Below, one piece after another: positions 56,916 through 64,000 of a stretch of 64,000 nucleotides of DNA. Below the pieces are notes generated by a model that made no database searches, was not told the origin of the DNA, and saw only the letters and a program-made list of their open reading frames with translations. Each line of letters opens with the position of its first letter. Within the stretch, counting starts at the first letter, position 1. The stretch comes from Candidatus Latescibacterota bacterium. Its GTDB lineage: Bacteria > Latescibacterota > UBA2968 > GCA-2709665. Made by a program: the position numbers and the translations under genes. The stretch covers positions 4,704,001 through 4,768,000 of the forward strand of contig OZ242358.1 of NCBI GenBank assembly GCA_965208835.1. Direction: 5' to 3'.

Positions 56916-58015
56916 TTATGTAGCCCGCGGCAGAACTGCATCGCCCTTCAGCCGTGCCGTGTAGAACAAGTCGCGGCCGGTCCAATCCACATCGACCTCA
57001 TTCAGAAGAATCGCATCGGCTATTCTTGTAATTCCCAGGTCGCCCACCGACTCAATCCCTTTTCCCAGAATCGCCGGGGCGATAAACACCGCCAGGCGGT
57101 CGACCAACCGGTCGCGCATCGCCGAAGCAGCCACCGTGCCCCCACCTTCGATCAACACGTGGGTTATGCCTTCGGCGCCCGCCCGGGAAAGTACGTCCCG
57201 AAGCATGGGCCTACCATTCTTTGGGGTACAGACCCATACGCGCGCGCCGCGCTCCTCCATCGCTTCGATTTTTTTTTTGAAACCCCGTGCGCGGCGGCGA
57301 AAATCAGCGCCTCCCCGTCGAATATCCTTGCGTCTCTTGAAATCTCAAGGCGACTGTCCAGCACGATTTTTGCCGGATCGGGACCGTCCGCGTGCCGAAC
57401 CGACAGCGCCGGATCGTCCGCGTCGACAGTCCCCCGACCGACCAGGACCGCGGACGCTTCAGCACGCAGCCCGTGGGCCTTTACCCTGGATGCGCCAGAC
57501 GAAATCCATTTCGATTCGCCCGATGCCGTCGCGATCCGACCGTCGAGGGTCTGCGCCAGCTTCAGGGTAACGAATGGAAAGCCCGTTGTGCGGTGTTTTA
57601 CGTAAGCCTCGTTCAGCCGACGCGCCTCTTCCTCTAGTACGCCAACCTCCACCCGTACACCGGCCTCCCGCAACCGGGCGATGCCTCTGCCGGAAACCCG
57701 TCGGTCCGGGTCCACCATGCCGCATACGACCCTCGCAACCCCTCTTTTGATCAACAAATCGACACACGGCGGCGTACGGCCGGTATGGGCGCAAGGTTCG
57801 AGGGTCACGTACAGCGTAACATTGGGGGTTCCGTCGGCCAACCCTTCAAGCGCGTATACCTCCGCGTGCGGTTTTCCGGATTCAGGGTAATACCCCTTTC
57901 CAACAACCTGCCCGTCCCGAACCGTCACCGCACCCACCAGAGCGCCGTCCCGTACCCGACCGCGTCCATTTTCGGCCAGCGACAACGCCAGCCTCATATA
58001 GTCCACATCCGTCAT
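56916..58015 (-). pseudogene. ribD: RibD deaminase/reductase, frameshifted at an A10 tract (57269-57278); may be a sequencing artefact
   Basis: 5' ORF has HAE, TLEPC...TPPC, KLAQTLDG; 3' ORF in another frame has LIEGGG, FIAP; junction is the homopolymer. Confidence 0.85.
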
Positions 58016-58063
58016 ATACTGACCTGTATCGCCGGGAAGGTGAAACGCAAAGCGTGGACGGGC

Positions 58064-60133
58064 CTATTCAAGATCGATCGTCGCTGTGCCCACGCCCACG
58101 TTGCCCAGCGCATCGGTCGCTCGTACGACGACAGTATATTCTCCCGCCGCCAGATCCTGGATTTCGAAACGCAAGGTCTCCGTCCTGGAGTCGAAAATAC
58201 GATCAACAGGAAAGATCACCTTCCATTCACCTGAATTCACCGCATAGGCCGCACTCCAGAGCGGGCTCGCAGCGTCGTTCAGCGATCCCTGGACTTGTAC
58301 TGACCCGCCCGCCGGCCGTATCTGCAGCACCACGGAGGGCGGTGTGTGGTCAAGATCGAACGGCTGGCTGACCATCTCGCCAACCAGCGCGAGTTCCTCC
58401 GGATTGGTCAACCTGTCCGATGCCACCACGCGGACCAGCATCGTCCCCTCGGGCGCGGACTCGGTATGCCACTCGTAGGAATTGGTGCGGAGATCTTCCT
58501 TCAGCAGTTTCCAATTCTTCTCGGGCAGACCCCGATAGTACAACGTGTACACCAGCGCGTCGTTATTCGCGTCTTCCGCTTTCCATGCGATCCGCCAGAG
58601 GCCTTTCGAGTTACCCGGCGCGTTTCGACCATTTCCCGTGTCCTTCGGCGAAGCGCCGTTTCCCTGGGCCTCAACGGGCGAGGCGACGAGTGCGAGGACC
58701 CGCGGGCCCATGTTTTCCTGGAGTCCCACAAGACTTACCTCGCGAATCGTGGGCGTGGTCTCGCCCGCCTCCGATCTCAACTCGGCTCGATACTGCAGGA
58801 ACCTGGCGGGCGGACTGTGTATCTGTCCCCCCTGGGAGACCGAAGACCATTCACTCCAGGTGTTGTCCGGTTTCTCGCTGTTTCCCGAACGGGTCTTGAA
58901 TTGAATGGATGCATCCGGGGCGGGTTGTGAATCCCAGGTAATCTTACCCCATCCGGATACGAGGTGAAAATCCCTCACCCTGGATTCCAGCCTGCCTTCG
59001 CGCGCGTACGCCTTAGCCAACCGATACACTCTCCCGCCTCCCGCGGTTCCCAGCCAGAAATCCCCGGACTCGGACCCGCAGAACGCCCACGGTTGTAAGT
59101 CTTTCAGGCGGGTCAGCAGCGTGGCCCGGCCGGACAGGTCCAAACGATAGATGCTCCCCTTGTCTCCCGTGAGCACCGTAATGTTCCGATCATCCGCATG
59201 TAATGCCAGAAGCATCGGCTCGTCCACCGCCCAGAGACGCACCGTCGCACCCGATGGACGTATCGCATAAAGCACGGAACCCTGTTGGGACGCAGAGGAC
59301 CCCTGGCCCTTTGCGGTTTGCTGGGATCCACCCTTTCCGCCCCCTTTGGAACGCCTGGACATTGCACCCGCGAACAGGACTCCGTCCGGTCCCATCGCCA
59401 GGGCGCGGATTTCATCTTCCGACGCGTCGTACAGTACTTCCACTTCACCTATTGCGTTGACACGGTAGACCAGCCCGCTCTGGTCCGTGCCGGCGTACAC
59501 CTGGCCGTGGGCGTCCCGAATCAGCGACACCACATTGTGGTCATCGCTTTGATAGACTTCGTCAACCTTTCCGTCCTTGGAGATACGCAGGATGCGCCCG
59601 TGTCTGCCGCCGGTGGCTGCGTACAGGCCTCCCTTTCCGTCCACAGCCAGCGCCCAGACGTGTTCGTCTCCGGTTCGACAGAACGTCTCGGGTTCTTTGC
59701 CCGGAACAATCCGGTATACGATCCCGTCCGGTGATGAGCCGGCATAAAGTGTCCCGTCCGTTCCGACGGCAAGACTGAAGATGGCCACTTCGGGAGAGTC
59801 GAAGAGGAGCGTGGGCTCTCCGGAGCCATCAAATGCAAAGATCTTTCCGCCATTGCCCGTTGCAATATACAGACGACCGCCTCGCCCCTCCGCGAGCGCC
59901 CACACGAATTCTTCTCCCGTATTCGCCGCAGCCTGCAATTCGGGCGCCAGCAACACCGCGCCTTCTCTCGTTATCGAGACGCCGTCGGCTTCGCCCCTGG
60001 CGAAAGCTTTCTGCGAGTGGTCGCGCCACACGATCGGCTCGACGCCGTCCGCTGAAATCGGAAGGCAGTTGAGAACGATGCAGAGGCTAATCAGCAAAAT
60101 CCGGTTGATCACATTTCCGTTTTCCCGATCCAA
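58064..60133 (-). CDS. Secreted beta-propeller repeat protein with C-terminal Ig/FN3-like domains
   Basis: Signal peptide; repeats (W/S)LA...G.LY(A/I)(A/G)T...G.(I/V)YR(I/V); beta-rich C-terminus. Confidence 0.75.
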   Translation of the reverse strand: MDRENGNVINRILLISLCIVLNCLPISADGVEPIVWRDHSQKAFARGEADGVSITREGAVLLAPELQAAANTGEEFVWALAEGRGGRLYIATGNGGKIFAFDGSGEPTLLFDSPEVAIFSLAVGTDGTLYAGSSPDGIVYRIVPGKEPETFCRTGDEHVWALAVDGKGGLYAATGGRHGRILRISKDGKVDEVYQSDDHNVVSLIRDAHGQVYAGTDQSGLVYRVNAIGEVEVLYDASEDEIRALAMGPDGVLFAGAMSRRSKGGGKGGSQQTAKGQGSSASQQGSVLYAIRPSGATVRLWAVDEPMLLALHADDRNITVLTGDKGSIYRLDLSGRATLLTRLKDLQPWAFCGSESGDFWLGTAGGGRVYRLAKAYAREGRLESRVRDFHLVSGWGKITWDSQPAPDASIQFKTRSGNSEKPDNTWSEWSSVSQGGQIHSPPARFLQYRAELRSEAGETTPTIREVSLVGLQENMGPRVLALVASPVEAQGNGASPKDTGNGRNAPGNSKGLWRIAWKAEDANNDALVYTLYYRGLPEKNWKLLKEDLRTNSYEWHTESAPEGTMLVRVVASDRLTNPEELALVGEMVSQPFDLDHTPPSVVLQIRPAGGSVQVQGSLNDAASPLWSAAYAVNSGEWKVIFPVDRIFDSRTETLRFEIQDLAAGEYTVVVRATDALGNVGVGTATIDLE

Positions 60134-60281
60134 CAGCCTGATCTCCTATCCTTCCGAATCGTCCGTTCCCGCCGGTTGTCCTTGCCGGGCCGATTGCGGT
60201 CCATTCGCACAGGGAGCGCCGATCGCGTCCGCGAAAGGCTCCCAACGCCCGGGCGTCCGGAGGCGGCGATCCCGGGATCAC

Positions 60282-62087
60282 CTACTTCCCTTTTTCGCCA
60301 GCGCTTCCACCCCCGGCGAAAATGACGCCGTTTGGTTTCCTGTTCACGTTCAGTACGACGATCTGACTTCCCGACAGCACATAGTCCGTTGGAATCCGTG
60401 CTCTCTGCACGACTGTCTGCCGAACCTGTTTTACCGCATCGGACGAGCGGGAAAATTGAAGCGCCGAGAGCACCGACGACGGCAGCCTTGACACCTCCCG
60501 TCCCTCGATCGTCACGCCCTGAGCCCCGGACAGCAGTTCAACAACCATTTCGTTGTTCCGGCCGGCGCGCCCCAGCAGGCGGATGAGATGATCCAGGTTT
60601 CTGGCGCTGTATTCACCCGGCGCTCGCTTGGCCTCCTGTTTCACGTGGGCGGATGCGCTGGAAACCCTGAGAACCAGCCGGCCGCCCGGCGTTTGATTCG
60701 GAATGACCATGGCTTCCTCGACCTGCCGCAGTCCTCCCCAGTAGGGCCGCAATGAAACCGTGACACGCACCGTATCGCCCGGCTGGAACGATGTCTTCTG
60801 CAATCCGATAGCCTGGATGTGGGCGGTGTGCGCCCTTTCGGCTTCCACATCCAGGTCGAAGGTGACCCGCTCGATCCTGATCGGCTGGAACGGATTCCGG
60901 ATCAGGTTCGCGAACGGCGTGGTGACCCCCAGTACGGCACTACCCAGCCCCAATGCGCCGGCATAGACGTTCTCGGCCTCCACCGATGGACGTCCATTCA
61001 GGTCGATTCTTACACGGGATTTCACCGTCACCTCGCCCGTCAGCTTCTCGGACGAAACCATCGCGCTGAAGACCGCGATCCGCAATAGAGTCGGACTGAG
61101 GTCGCGGTCTCGCAAGACCTCCATCCGGAACTGCGCTTCCTTGCCCGGCGAACGCAAGTTGATCTGTACGGGCATCATGTCAACTTCGAGGCCGATGGTG
61201 CCGGCGATGCCGGGGGCTCGATCCTGAACGATGGCGCCCATGGTCCGCCCGGCCACTCCCAGCTTGAACGACGCAGACTGGCTGGGCAACACTTCGTGAA
61301 TATAGGCTCCCGTCATCGGAAACGCAGTCGCACCGCCAAAAATCATGGAATGCCCGAATCCGACCACCCGATCCCCATCCCGATGGGTCAGCGTTCCGAT
61401 TCCCGTCACGCTGAGGTCGCCCCGTACCAGCTGCACGCCAAGGGCGGCGCCAGGTTCGAACCCACCCGCGGGCAGGCCGGGATCCACGCCGCCACCCCCC
61501 TGGACCGGCGTCCATCCTAAATCCGAAAACGCCTGTCGAAAATCTTCGACCGCCTGCGGCGCAAAACCGGAAATCACGATCGGAAGGCTGATCGGCGTCA
61601 ACTCCGCCGCATCCATACCCGCGAGATCGATCAGTCGCCGCGCGCCGGCTTTCGTCAGGCGGGCCGTCGAGCTGACGCCTTCAGGTGCTGCCGGCCGGTT
61701 GAACAGATCAACCATTGCGGCAATCGGCGTAATGCCGGCGATGGGTTCCTTGGCAAAAGCGCCAACCCGATACGATACCGCGCCGATCAGCTTGCCATCG
61801 ACGTAAACCGGACTGCCGCTCATCCCCAGGATCACTCCCGTATTGGACAGGGGGCCGCCGGACAGCCGGGCCAGAATCAGATCGCTACGTGGACCGATCG
61901 CATTGTGCAATACACCCAGAATCTCGACCTGAAACGTATCAATTCGCGTTCCCTGGAAGACCGTCCGGCCGATGCCCTGCATCCCTCTGCGGAGTTCTTC
62001 GACGGGCATTGTCTCCACGGCCGCCCGGGCATTGCCGGCAACAGCGCACCACAACACAGCGGGCAGCGATATCTTCAGCAGACGCAT
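60282..62087 (-). CDS. SpoIVB-like peptidase S55 domain protein
   Basis: Signal peptide; F.VEILGV, GVILGMSGSPV..DGKLIGAV, FGH. Confidence 0.85.
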   Translation of the reverse strand: MRLLKISLPAVLWCAVAGNARAAVETMPVEELRRGMQGIGRTVFQGTRIDTFQVEILGVLHNAIGPRSDLILARLSGGPLSNTGVILGMSGSPVYVDGKLIGAVSYRVGAFAKEPIAGITPIAAMVDLFNRPAAPEGVSSTARLTKAGARRLIDLAGMDAAELTPISLPIVISGFAPQAVEDFRQAFSDLGWTPVQGGGGVDPGLPAGGFEPGAALGVQLVRGDLSVTGIGTLTHRDGDRVVGFGHSMIFGGATAFPMTGAYIHEVLPSQSASFKLGVAGRTMGAIVQDRAPGIAGTIGLEVDMMPVQINLRSPGKEAQFRMEVLRDRDLSPTLLRIAVFSAMVSSEKLTGEVTVKSRVRIDLNGRPSVEAENVYAGALGLGSAVLGVTTPFANLIRNPFQPIRIERVTFDLDVEAERAHTAHIQAIGLQKTSFQPGDTVRVTVSLRPYWGGLRQVEEAMVIPNQTPGGRLVLRVSSASAHVKQEAKRAPGEYSARNLDHLIRLLGRAGRNNEMVVELLSGAQGVTIEGREVSRLPSSVLSALQFSRSSDAVKQVRQTVVQRARIPTDYVLSGSQIVVLNVNRKPNGVIFAGGGSAGEKGK

Positions 62088-62289
62088 CACGACGCACACC
62101 CTTTCTCGTCGATCGGTACGGGAGCCACGAAATCTACTGCGCGCCTTCGGAAAAGTCAAGCGCTGCAACGGCCTAAGTAATTGCAAATTAACATCCGAAC
62201 CCTGTTTTGTTTCCCCAGATATAATACCCGTTTTCGCAATATGGAACAAGCCCCTTGTGCAAATCGGATCTTGTCCTTATCATAACCCA

Positions 62290-62760
62290 ATGCAAATCTT
62301 GCTGCTGGCGGTTGGCAAATGCCGAAAGCCGTATCTGAGAGTTGGTGTCTCGGACTACATCGATCGCATCCGGAGATACGCCAGCCTGGAGCATATCGAA
62401 GTCAAAGAGGAACCGACACCGGGGAGGGGTACCGCTCCGAACGGCCTCTGCAAGGAAGGCGAACGTATTCTCCGACGGGTTCCGCAGAACGCATCTATAA
62501 TTGCTCTGGACCCGGCCGGGGAGTCCTGCAGTTCCGATGGCCTCGCCCGGCGCATCTCCAGAATCGGTCTGGAAGGAACTGGTCGAATCGCGTTTGTCGT
62601 TGGCGGTCCATCCGGCCTTGCCGCCCGGGTTATCCGGCGCGCTGACTGGCGCCTTTCGCTTTCTTCCCTTACCTTTCCGCACGAGATCGCCCGTCTGGTT
62701 CTCCTGGAACAGATCTACAGGGCGTTTACCATCATGCGCGGCGAACCGTATCACAGGTAG
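62290..62760 (+). CDS. rlmH: 23S rRNA (pseudouridine1915-N3)-methyltransferase
   Basis: LLAVGK, FVVGGPSG, SLSSLTFPH, EQIYRA, GEPYHR. Confidence 0.95.
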   Translation: MQILLLAVGKCRKPYLRVGVSDYIDRIRRYASLEHIEVKEEPTPGRGTAPNGLCKEGERILRRVPQNASIIALDPAGESCSSDGLARRISRIGLEGTGRIAFVVGGPSGLAARVIRRADWRLSLSSLTFPHEIARLVLLEQIYRAFTIMRGEPYHR

Positions 62761-62821
62761 TCGTCGCAGCAGCCGGACCCGTAACACCGTGGCAGGCGCT
62801 CTTCCGCCGGCCGGCCGAAAC

Positions 62822-63061
62822 AAAAAAGCCCGGAAAACAGGTTCACGCGACAGCCGTGGAGAGATGATTCCGCCACTGGAATCCGGCTGCCGGGTACGTC
62901 TCCTGTTTCCGGGCTTTTTAAATGCAGTCCGAAATGTCAGGATATGCAGTTTCGGGGGAACGGAGGATATCCGAATCCGGTAACCTCGGAGAACGGCCGG
63001 AGGGGTATCGGCCCCGGGGTTCCGGAAGAAGGGTTGTCTCAATCGCCTGCCTGTTGAGAAC
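62822..63061 (-). ncRNA. Candidate ~240-nt structured small RNA (unassigned family)
   Basis: Promoter TTGACT-17-TATCTT (63096-63068), four successive hairpins, terminal long stem with U6, no credible ORF. Confidence 0.5.
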
Positions 63062-63438
63062 ACTTGAAAGATAAGCCAATGTTTTTATTCAGTCAAGGGG
63101 AAGTTTGCCCTAATATACTGTTTTACATTATCTTGTGGTCCATCGGTCGAGTCATACCTTATATAGATTTCCGTGCGGCGGTCCATCGGAATCAGCATCT
63201 CCCCCCATTCGCCGCGCGTGGTTTTGCGCATACGCTGGACGAAGTCGGCCTTCCCGCCGCTTCCGGTACCGTCACAGCCCGGAAAGAAACCATATCGACC
63301 CGTTGACCCCGGAAGGTGGGCATTCCAACCTCACGCAATGACAGATACTTGTGGACAGAATTCCTGATCAGCGCTATCTTCAACACGCCTTTACACAGAC
63401 TGAGCTTCCACGTTTATCATCGTTGACGCAATCGACCC

Positions 63439-64000
63439 ATGCCGCATACGCTTACCATAACACAGGCGGCGGAGGAAATCCGGTCGGGCCGTCTTTCTCC
63501 GCTGGAGCTTCTTCAAGCCTGTCTCTCACAGATCGACGCCCTGGACAGCCGCCTGCATGCCTGGGTCCACGTCGACAGGGAAGGCGCCGAGCAACGCGCA
63601 CGGGTTCTTCAGGAGGAACTTGCCCGCGGCCGGTACCGTGGTCCCCTTCATGGGATTCCAATCGGGATAAAGGACATCATCGACGTGGAGGGCCTGCCCA
63701 CCGCCGCCGGCGCACGGCATCTCTACAACCGGGTTCCGGATGAAGATGCAGCGGTGGTCGCCCGATTGCGCAGGTCCGGCGCGGTCATCCACGGCAAAAC
63801 GGTTACCACGCCATTTGCGTGTTTCGATCCGGCGGAAACCAGGAACCCCTGGAACCCCGATCATACGCCCGGCGGCTCCAGCAGCGGTTCGGCCGCCGCC
63901 GTCGCGGCGCGCATGTGTCCCGCCGCCCTGGGGTCCCAGACCGGCGGATCCATCAGCAGACCCGCGGCGTATTGCGGCCTCGTGGGTCTGAAACCCACCT
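63439..64000 (+). CDS. Amidase signature family protein (3' truncated by window edge)
   Basis: Own translation: MPHTLTITQAAEEIRSG...GPLHGIPIGIKD...PGGSSSGSAAAV...GSQTGGSISRPAAYCG. Confidence 0.92.
   Translation, partial: MPHTLTITQAAEEIRSGRLSPLELLQACLSQIDALDSRLHAWVHVDREGAEQRARVLQEELARGRYRGPLHGIPIGIKDIIDVEGLPTAAGARHLYNRVPDEDAAVVARLRRSGAVIHGKTVTTPFACFDPAETRNPWNPDHTPGGSSSGSAAAVAARMCPAALGSQTGGSISRPAAYCGLVGLKPT

Follow-up and report, generated by a model that had tools for sequence, protein, structure and literature searches.

A probable new family of small RNAs, convergent with rlmH, in one order of the Latescibacterota

In the 64,000-nucleotide stretch of Candidatus Latescibacterota DNA that was analysed here (the window), the minus strand between rlmH and an amidase-like gene very probably carries an RNA gene, that is, a conserved, structured and non-coding unit bounded by a sigma-70-type promoter and a covarying hairpin terminator. 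This strand displays a promoter, four local stem-loops, a long three-tier terminal hairpin and a U-run ending at 62822. The predicted primary transcript is non-coding and ~240 nt long (239-240 nt; 62822..63061, minus strand), its start being placed from the -10 box and its end from the U-run. It is flanked on the promoter side by the amidase-like gene (63439 onward, plus strand) and on the other side by the convergent rlmH (62290..62760, plus strand, 156 codons), which has the terminator hairpin in common with the RNA and is not part of it. Its own promoter and terminator, its position outside any mRNA, its non-coding nature and its convergent downstream gene are the hallmarks of a generic trans-encoded sRNA. 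The RNA is of a known kind, and it is the founding member of a genuine new family, not previously catalogued, which is order-wide, single-copy and near-universal and whose function we infer. A stand-alone RNA gene of this size, non-coding and endowed with its own promoter and terminator, had been proposed in a first-pass annotation of the same DNA, and this proposal stands, 63096 being the first base of the -35 box and the RNA itself running from ~63061 to 62822. RNA regulation is almost wholly undescribed in the Latescibacterota (formerly WS3), a phylum without cultured members, and a full-text literature search combining the phylum name with 'small RNA' found no published account of this RNA. 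The family is order-wide and ready for alignment, with a defined promoter, a structure supported by covariation and an explicit, testable seed hypothesis, and it provides annotators with a marker RNA of the order.

Folded as a single sequence, the minus strand reaches -94 kcal/mol (z = -4.1), a value equalled by 1 of 200 shuffles. Because the plus strand folds nearly as well (z = -3.7), the fold alone cannot assign the strand. The consensus fold of 15 species of the genus recovers the CUCAA/UUGAG stem, a stem-loop with outer CCGG/CCGG and inner GGCCG/CGGCC pairings, the CCGAA/UUCGG stem and the three-tier terminal stem; all the stems named in the first-pass annotation are therefore present in both the single-sequence and the consensus folds. 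Per 20 nt, the identity of 14 congeners to the window's genome (G000) is 0.80-1.00 within an island extending from 63138 to 62819; outside this island it is ~0.56 in the spacer towards rlmH and 0.25-0.8 upstream. On one side the island is bounded by an A/T-rich element immediately before the -35 box, and on the other its limit (62819) matches the end of the U-run. No conserved ORF was found in the RNA: the longest sense ORFs of one genus are unlike those of another in frame, position and sequence, and one-base indels occur within the genus in the 15-species alignment. A 48-codon minus-strand ORF (63231-63085) that runs into the promoter was judged spurious, its stop not being kept in congeners. 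A cmscan search of window positions 58000-64000 with all 4227 families of Rfam 15 returned no match at E <= 1, and loci from six other genera returned none at E <= 0.5 (17 related loci were scanned in all). The absence from known families, for which the first-pass annotation had suggested an Rfam scan as a check, is consequently borne out.

The distribution of the family was established with R1, a covariance model of the 96-nt 3' hairpin. Exactly one sense-strand copy was detected in 50 of the 53 genomes of the window's order, and G000 itself holds a single copy of the RNA. The three misses are assemblies of 430-820 contigs, in one of which the promoter lies ~200 nt from a contig end. Elsewhere in the phylum, R1 found no copy in the 102 genomes searched, 64 of which belong to the sister family of the same class. 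When bacteria and archaea were scanned for the exact pattern, each species being represented by one genome, the hairpin core was recovered in 23 records: 19 Candidatus Latescibacterota, three 'Gemmatimonadota' and one 'uncultured bacterium'. According to their coordinates, the three 'Gemmatimonadota' records are genomes placed in the window's own genus.

The convergence with rlmH that had been noted in the window is a general feature of the family: in 46 of 50 genomes, the region immediately downstream of the RNA contains an RlmH match on the opposite strand. The gene is not adjacent in G015, G019, G034 and G016, and the match covers residues 1-44 only in G002. A protein query did not find RlmH in any of five genomes from sister families (G094, G105, G093, G102, G155), and Pfam PF02590 did not find it in four of the five. 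In G105, a two-frame RlmH remnant is followed by a plain terminator and no such RNA. Judging from this small sample, the taxonomic range of rlmH may be the same as that of the sRNA. The start of rlmH (window positions 62245-62292, compared over 46 related loci) is itself unusual: 6-8 nt separate the end of a -10-like TATCAT/TATAAT from the ATG, AACAAGnnnCTTGTG is conserved upstream and no Shine-Dalgarno word is present there. The gene looks leaderless across the order.

The sigma-70-type promoter (63068..63096, minus strand) consists of a -35 box TTGACT (63096-63091), a 17-nt A-rich spacer and a -10 box TATCTT (63073-63068), exactly as first annotated. It was recovered by a consensus scan which detected five promoter-like sites in 2 kb for 1.1 expected. 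The 29-nt element, spacer included, is found 225-343 nt upstream of the hairpin end in all 50 genomes and is almost invariant, the conservation extending to the A-rich spacer and to a GGC preceding the -10 box. With up to 3 mismatches, the pattern is present in 52 of the 53 genomes of the order and in none of 115 outside it, and the same pattern read backwards gives 1 match in all 168 genomes. It occurs once in G000. The near invariance of this promoter, including its spacer, would imply tight transcriptional control. Upstream, at the edge of the conservation island, lies an A/T-rich region (63097..63138, minus strand) resembling an UP element or a regulator site, in which identity to G000 is 0.91 at 63099-63118 and 1.00 at 63119-63138 among the 14 congeners. 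None of the 14 congeners departs from G000 in the latter 20-nt stretch, which may act as an UP element or bind a regulator; A-rich tracts are also seen upstream of the promoter in other genera. Farther upstream, a segment of ~199 nt before the amidase start (63228-63426) is present in G000 and missing from G005, G002, G006 and G009, where its flanks are only ~7-14 nt apart.

The 3' module delimited by R1 (62823..62918, minus strand) is a three-tier hairpin followed by the U-run. Its outer stem pairs GCCCGGAAACAGG with CCUGUUUUCCGGGC, its middle stem CAGCCG with CGGCUG and its apical stem GGAUUCC with GGAAUC. The alignment of the 50 sense rows shows that the internal loop AUCUCUCCA (62857..62865, minus strand) has an invariant 7-nt core, UCUCUCC, identical in 50 of 50. 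A 40-nt core, GCAGCCGGAUUCC-loop-GGAAUC(A/G)UCUCUCC..GGCUGU, is almost invariant across the order, and the outer stems covary. Over the hairpin, 97.0% of cells are paired (90.6 +/- 0.6 in shuffles), nine pairs carry compensatory changes (5.7 in shuffles) and the cells with such changes number 43 (14 in shuffles). The resulting covariation score was reached by none of 500 shuffles and slid controls all scored far lower, so that the search for covariation in related genomes, which the first-pass annotation had also suggested, gave a positive answer; in a wider alignment, one further pair switches from G-C to A-U in one genus. In the window's genus, the hairpin has a G+C-rich stem with a U-run on each strand (AAAAAAGCCCGG...CCGGGCTTTTT), as is characteristic of intrinsic two-way terminators, and it is such a terminator, common to the RNA and to the convergent rlmH. 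The strength of the U-run on each strand differs between genera; in the sister family, the better of the two U-runs is that on the rlmH strand, the one after the hairpin on the RNA strand being weaker.

The 5' domain varies in length and sequence across the order, yet one design is retained. In the window, where all the following features are on the minus strand, stem-loop 1 (CUCAA/UUGAG; 63037..63059) has pairs 4-9 with 22-27 that are kept in the 15 species with one-sided G-U changes. The pyrimidine tract CAACCCUUCUUCC (63024..63036) is unpaired in single-sequence and consensus folds. Stem-loop 2 (62976..63026) folds with an apical loop AUACCCCUC (63008-63000) containing the CCCC/CCUCC motif and with a GUUCU(CC) bulge (62994-62990). 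The unpaired probability of the apical loop is 0.95-1.0 for 13 of the genus's 15 species, with 0.58 and 0.96 for the other two, and a hairpin with CCC(C/U) in its loop is found at RNA positions 38-62 in 47 of 50 genomes. The stems of these hairpins vary between genera yet remain paired (GGCCG/CGGCC in the window; CCGAU/AUCGG, GGUUGAU/AUUGACC and AUCCCG/UGGGAU in others). Another pyrimidine tract, UCCUCCGUUCCCCC (62954..62967), containing CCUCC and C5, lies partly in a small hairpin and is partly single-stranded. The CCCC near position 103 has an unpaired probability of 0.5-0.9 in 14 of the 15 species (0.29 in G007), and a comparable unpaired CCCC exists near RNA position 100 in other genera. 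Stem-loop 4 (CCGAAA/UUUCGG; 62929..62955) appears in single-sequence and consensus folds. Across genomes, the C-runs are mostly unpaired and occupy matching places (~25, ~55 and ~100), with a second C-rich loop at ~position 25 in most of the sister family. The composition of the 5' domains of the 50 RNAs is strongly biased: CCCC occurs 222 times and GGGG 14 times, and CUCC/CCUC/UCCC occur 283 times for 37 occurrences of their purine complements. The count of CCCC is threefold that of composition shuffles (72 +/- 11, maximum 101), and 49 of the 50 RNAs have at least two. The repeated pyrimidine motifs reported in the first-pass annotation are thus present, resemble the anti-Shine-Dalgarno sequence, and are conserved and unpaired across the order.

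RoxS/RsaE is an RNA of ~100 nt whose C-rich motifs pair with G-rich Shine-Dalgarno regions independently of Hfq, and both RsaE/RoxS and 6C are names of Rfam families. The unpaired, Shine-Dalgarno-complementary C-rich motifs of the window RNA also characterize RsaE/RoxS, a resemblance that is functional only. This sRNA is one of the Firmicutes (PMC4409812, PMC6158497). The window RNA is likewise trans-encoded, with its own promoter and terminator, wide conservation and several unpaired C-rich motifs. However, it matches no Rfam model in the scan, it is 225-343 nt long, it belongs to a different phylum and only it has the invariant 40-nt three-tier 3' module with the UCUCUCC internal loop. A second point of comparison is the 6C sRNA of the Actinobacteria, which is reported to bind multiple mRNA targets via C-rich loops independently of RNA chaperones (PMC6486639). 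Both RNAs have C-rich hairpin loops, a G+C-rich lineage without Hfq and high conservation in a large group, but the window RNA has no Rfam match, more modules (2-4 C-runs and the UCUCUCC loop), C-runs of 4-6, a much greater length and a variable 5' domain. It may therefore be regarded as analogous to RoxS/RsaE and 6C, while being a member of neither family.

The reading that we favor, with a probability of roughly 0.5, is that of a chaperone-independent, multi-seed anti-Shine-Dalgarno base-pairing sRNA. In that case, the RNA would act in trans through seeds formed by its single-stranded C/U motifs, namely the CCCC/CCUCC loop of stem-loop 2, the CCUCC-C5 tract, the CUUCUUCC tract and the UCUCUCC loop. 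These seeds would pair with the purine-rich Shine-Dalgarno regions (GGAG/GGGG) of several mRNAs; such pairing would block ribosome loading and probably alter mRNA stability, and thanks to strong G-C pairs it would require neither Hfq nor ProQ. The genome provides matching partners: its Shine-Dalgarno sites are canonical, GGAG peaking ~10-fold over background at -12 to -9 and GGGG and GAGA being raised, the 16S 3' end carries CCUCC, and the unpaired tracts of the RNA are exact complements of G000 Shine-Dalgarno words. No CsrA (PF02599), Hfq or ProQ was found in G000, a single-contig assembly that is 97.8% complete. If this reading is correct, the RNA would be an independent case of a chaperone-free design that opposes C-rich loops to G-rich ribosome-binding sites, known so far from Firmicutes and Actinobacteria, and would argue for its repeated origin.

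The first-pass annotation had suggested target prediction as a further check on a trans-acting role, and the outcome is mixed: the start regions are enriched in complements, no conserved target emerged and the trans-acting role continues to be inferred. Among 3888 genes, 38 start regions contain exact complements of at least 9 nt to the unpaired tracts; two control windows yielded 10 and 8, and a composition-matched control in which the purine words were put in reverse order yielded 15 start regions. In this count the start was the first ATG, because choosing starts by their Shine-Dalgarno score would have been circular. The enrichment is as expected of any anti-Shine-Dalgarno-like word. An RNAduplex scan of 3778 start regions gave the same energy distribution as coding controls (1207 versus 1228 at <= -20 kcal/mol), and it is uninformative because the scored segments included G+C-rich stems. 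Three individual genes were considered and not accepted. The best candidate is the start of a gene for a coxM-like FAD-binding subunit (G000:C1:1840253-1840292, outside the window), which carries CGTGGAGAGA(T), complementary to the invariant loop; the site is conserved in 12 of the genus's 15 species, but in only 2 of 15 in the sister family. Its GGAGAGA is the conserved word, and the sister family has the gene within an operon. A site at a dipeptidase gene persists in 5 of the 15 species of the genus and in none of nine outside it, and the start region of rlmH, which looks leaderless, has no complementarity to the RNA. No target conserved among orthologues was thus found by the duplex scan, the complement count, the two candidates or rlmH.

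Several other scenarios may explain the features of this RNA. The main one, rather unlikely in our estimation, is that it binds or sequesters proteins: the 40-nt 3' module would dock a lineage-specific RNA-binding protein, and the C-rich loops would titrate a protein with affinity for C-rich single strands, instead of mRNAs. In the 3' core, the sequence of the stems is itself invariant, beyond what pairing demands, over an order in which RlmH drops to 42-50% protein identity. Such invariance is not required for base-pairing regulation and suits a protein-binding site better. Repeated similar loop motifs are also the design of known sponge RNAs, a novel chaperone is plausible as no known sRNA chaperone was found, and the RNA is single-copy and near-universal like housekeeping RNAs. 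Nevertheless, the analysis yielded no candidate protein, the gene next to the promoter varies between genera (11 clusters among 49 genomes), and the motifs exactly complement the Shine-Dalgarno words of the host, for which base-pairing needs no further assumption. A more elaborate proposal, which we hold to be quite unlikely, would make the RNA the hub of an undescribed RNA-protein system, in which the 3' module CAGCCGGAUUCC...GGAAUCAUCUCUCC..GGCUGU docks a protein replacing Hfq/ProQ and the whole acts as a global brake on translation. If it were true, Shine-Dalgarno-led mRNAs would be braked via multiple motifs and leaderless ones, such as rlmH, left untouched, and the common spacer-conserved promoter would tie the RNA to a second locus (described below) in a small regulon.

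The same exposed C-rich motifs that would serve as seeds could instead make the RNA a decoy or sponge for G-rich RNAs (sRNAs, tRNA fragments or leader RNAs) and not a direct translational repressor. The second locus, with the same promoter and C-loop hairpins before a gene, suggests that related RNAs might form a small network. However, no G-rich partner RNA is known, and the present data do not separate a decoy from the anti-Shine-Dalgarno reading; we deem the decoy improbable.

We consider it more improbable still that the locus is mainly a two-way terminator and 3'-end antisense element for rlmH, its upstream part being a by-product. The convergent rlmH is adjacent in 46 of the 50 genomes, its match reaches into the outer stem of the hairpin in two genera, and the plus strand bears the better U-run in the sister family. 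Yet this scenario does not account for an invariant promoter located 225-343 nt from the hairpin end, for a C-rich 5' domain whose hairpins covary or for the invariant internal loop. Moreover, the RNA is retained in the four genomes without an adjacent rlmH, and in the transcript of rlmH an invariant G.U pair of the hairpin would turn into an A.C mismatch.

That the RNA is a very divergent 6S-like RNA, with RNA polymerase as its binding partner, is highly improbable. The window RNA shares with 6S RNA (RF00013) its single copy, its near-universal presence in the group and a strong-looking promoter, and the 6S model gives no match at E <= 1 in G000 and none in any searched genome of the class. 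Contrary to 6S RNA, it has no rod-like fold and no central bubble; it forms a row of local hairpins, its 3' end lies in a covarying hairpin and no stem closes the 5' and 3' ends. Identity with 6S RNA is excluded by this architecture. The 5' domain is, in addition, conserved neither in sequence nor in length, and this RNA was not found in sister families either. Little can be concluded from the silence of the Rfam 6S model, which is nearly insensitive in this phylum: it yields six weak sub-threshold matches in 151 phylum genomes, none of them in the window's class. The 6S RNA of the phylum is either very divergent or missing.

The strand of the RNA is indicated by several lines of evidence. Read on the minus strand, the hairpin contains 90 G.U/U.G cells and 34 A.C/C.A cells, and one of its G.U pairs, found in 43 of 46 distinct rows with A-U taking its place in the remaining 3, favors the minus strand because it would be an A.C mismatch on the plus strand. 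A hand count from the consensus pair table gives 26 G-U cells against 9 A-C in the 5' domain of the genus. The promoter is oriented along the minus strand, and R1 scores 112 bits in sense and 33 bits in antisense in the window, a difference that is partly by construction. A plus-strand transcript would meet the hairpin and U-run first, directly after rlmH, and transcription would stop before the rest. The repeated short motifs in hairpin loops recall the CsrB/RsmZ sponges, but the motifs of the transcribed strand are CCCC and CUCC instead of GGA (37 purine words versus 283) and no CsrA was found, so that the strand and the absence of CsrA exclude a CsrB-type function. The CsrA-like GGA sites proposed for the opposite strand in the first-pass annotation are likewise abandoned, no CsrA gene having been found and the plus strand having neither promoter nor 3' end. 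A functional plus-strand RNA, either a CsrB-like sponge rich in GGA/GGGG or an rlmH 3'-UTR RNA, is scarcely credible: the fold is nearly as good and the loops would show GGA/GGGG, yet it would have no CsrA, no fitting promoter or terminator and a stop at the hairpin before its G-rich part, and the G.U and A.C counts favor the minus strand.

One of 12 RNA runs contained 48% of the sampled words. In the same run, a single metatranscriptome contig of 185 nt, 100% identical to 62856-63040, lies wholly inside the predicted RNA, and no contig covers the flanks (62300-62855 or 63041-63600). This contig is a weak pointer to expression, since contigs cannot show strand, ends or level, depth is low and DNA carry-over is possible. 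Runs X2 and X4 have no contig at the locus, and in run X9 a 641-nt contig of a relative spans the hairpin and is uninformative on transcript ends.

A second set of loci (L108-L117), one per genome, was observed in seven other genera (g3, g4, g7, g8, g9, g10 and g11; for instance G020:C1:542900-544200); neither the window's genus nor g6 yielded one. These loci have the same promoter type, TTGACnnAAAAAAAACAAAGGCTTAT, and no Rfam match or copy of the 3' hairpin was found in them. The promoter is followed by 165-283 nt with CCCC hairpin loops and then by an ORF with a signal-peptide-like start, and one of the loop hairpins, GUCGUACCCCUUCGAU, resembles that of the g8 sRNA. This second locus could encode a sibling of the RNA, or else a leader of common ancestry with it.
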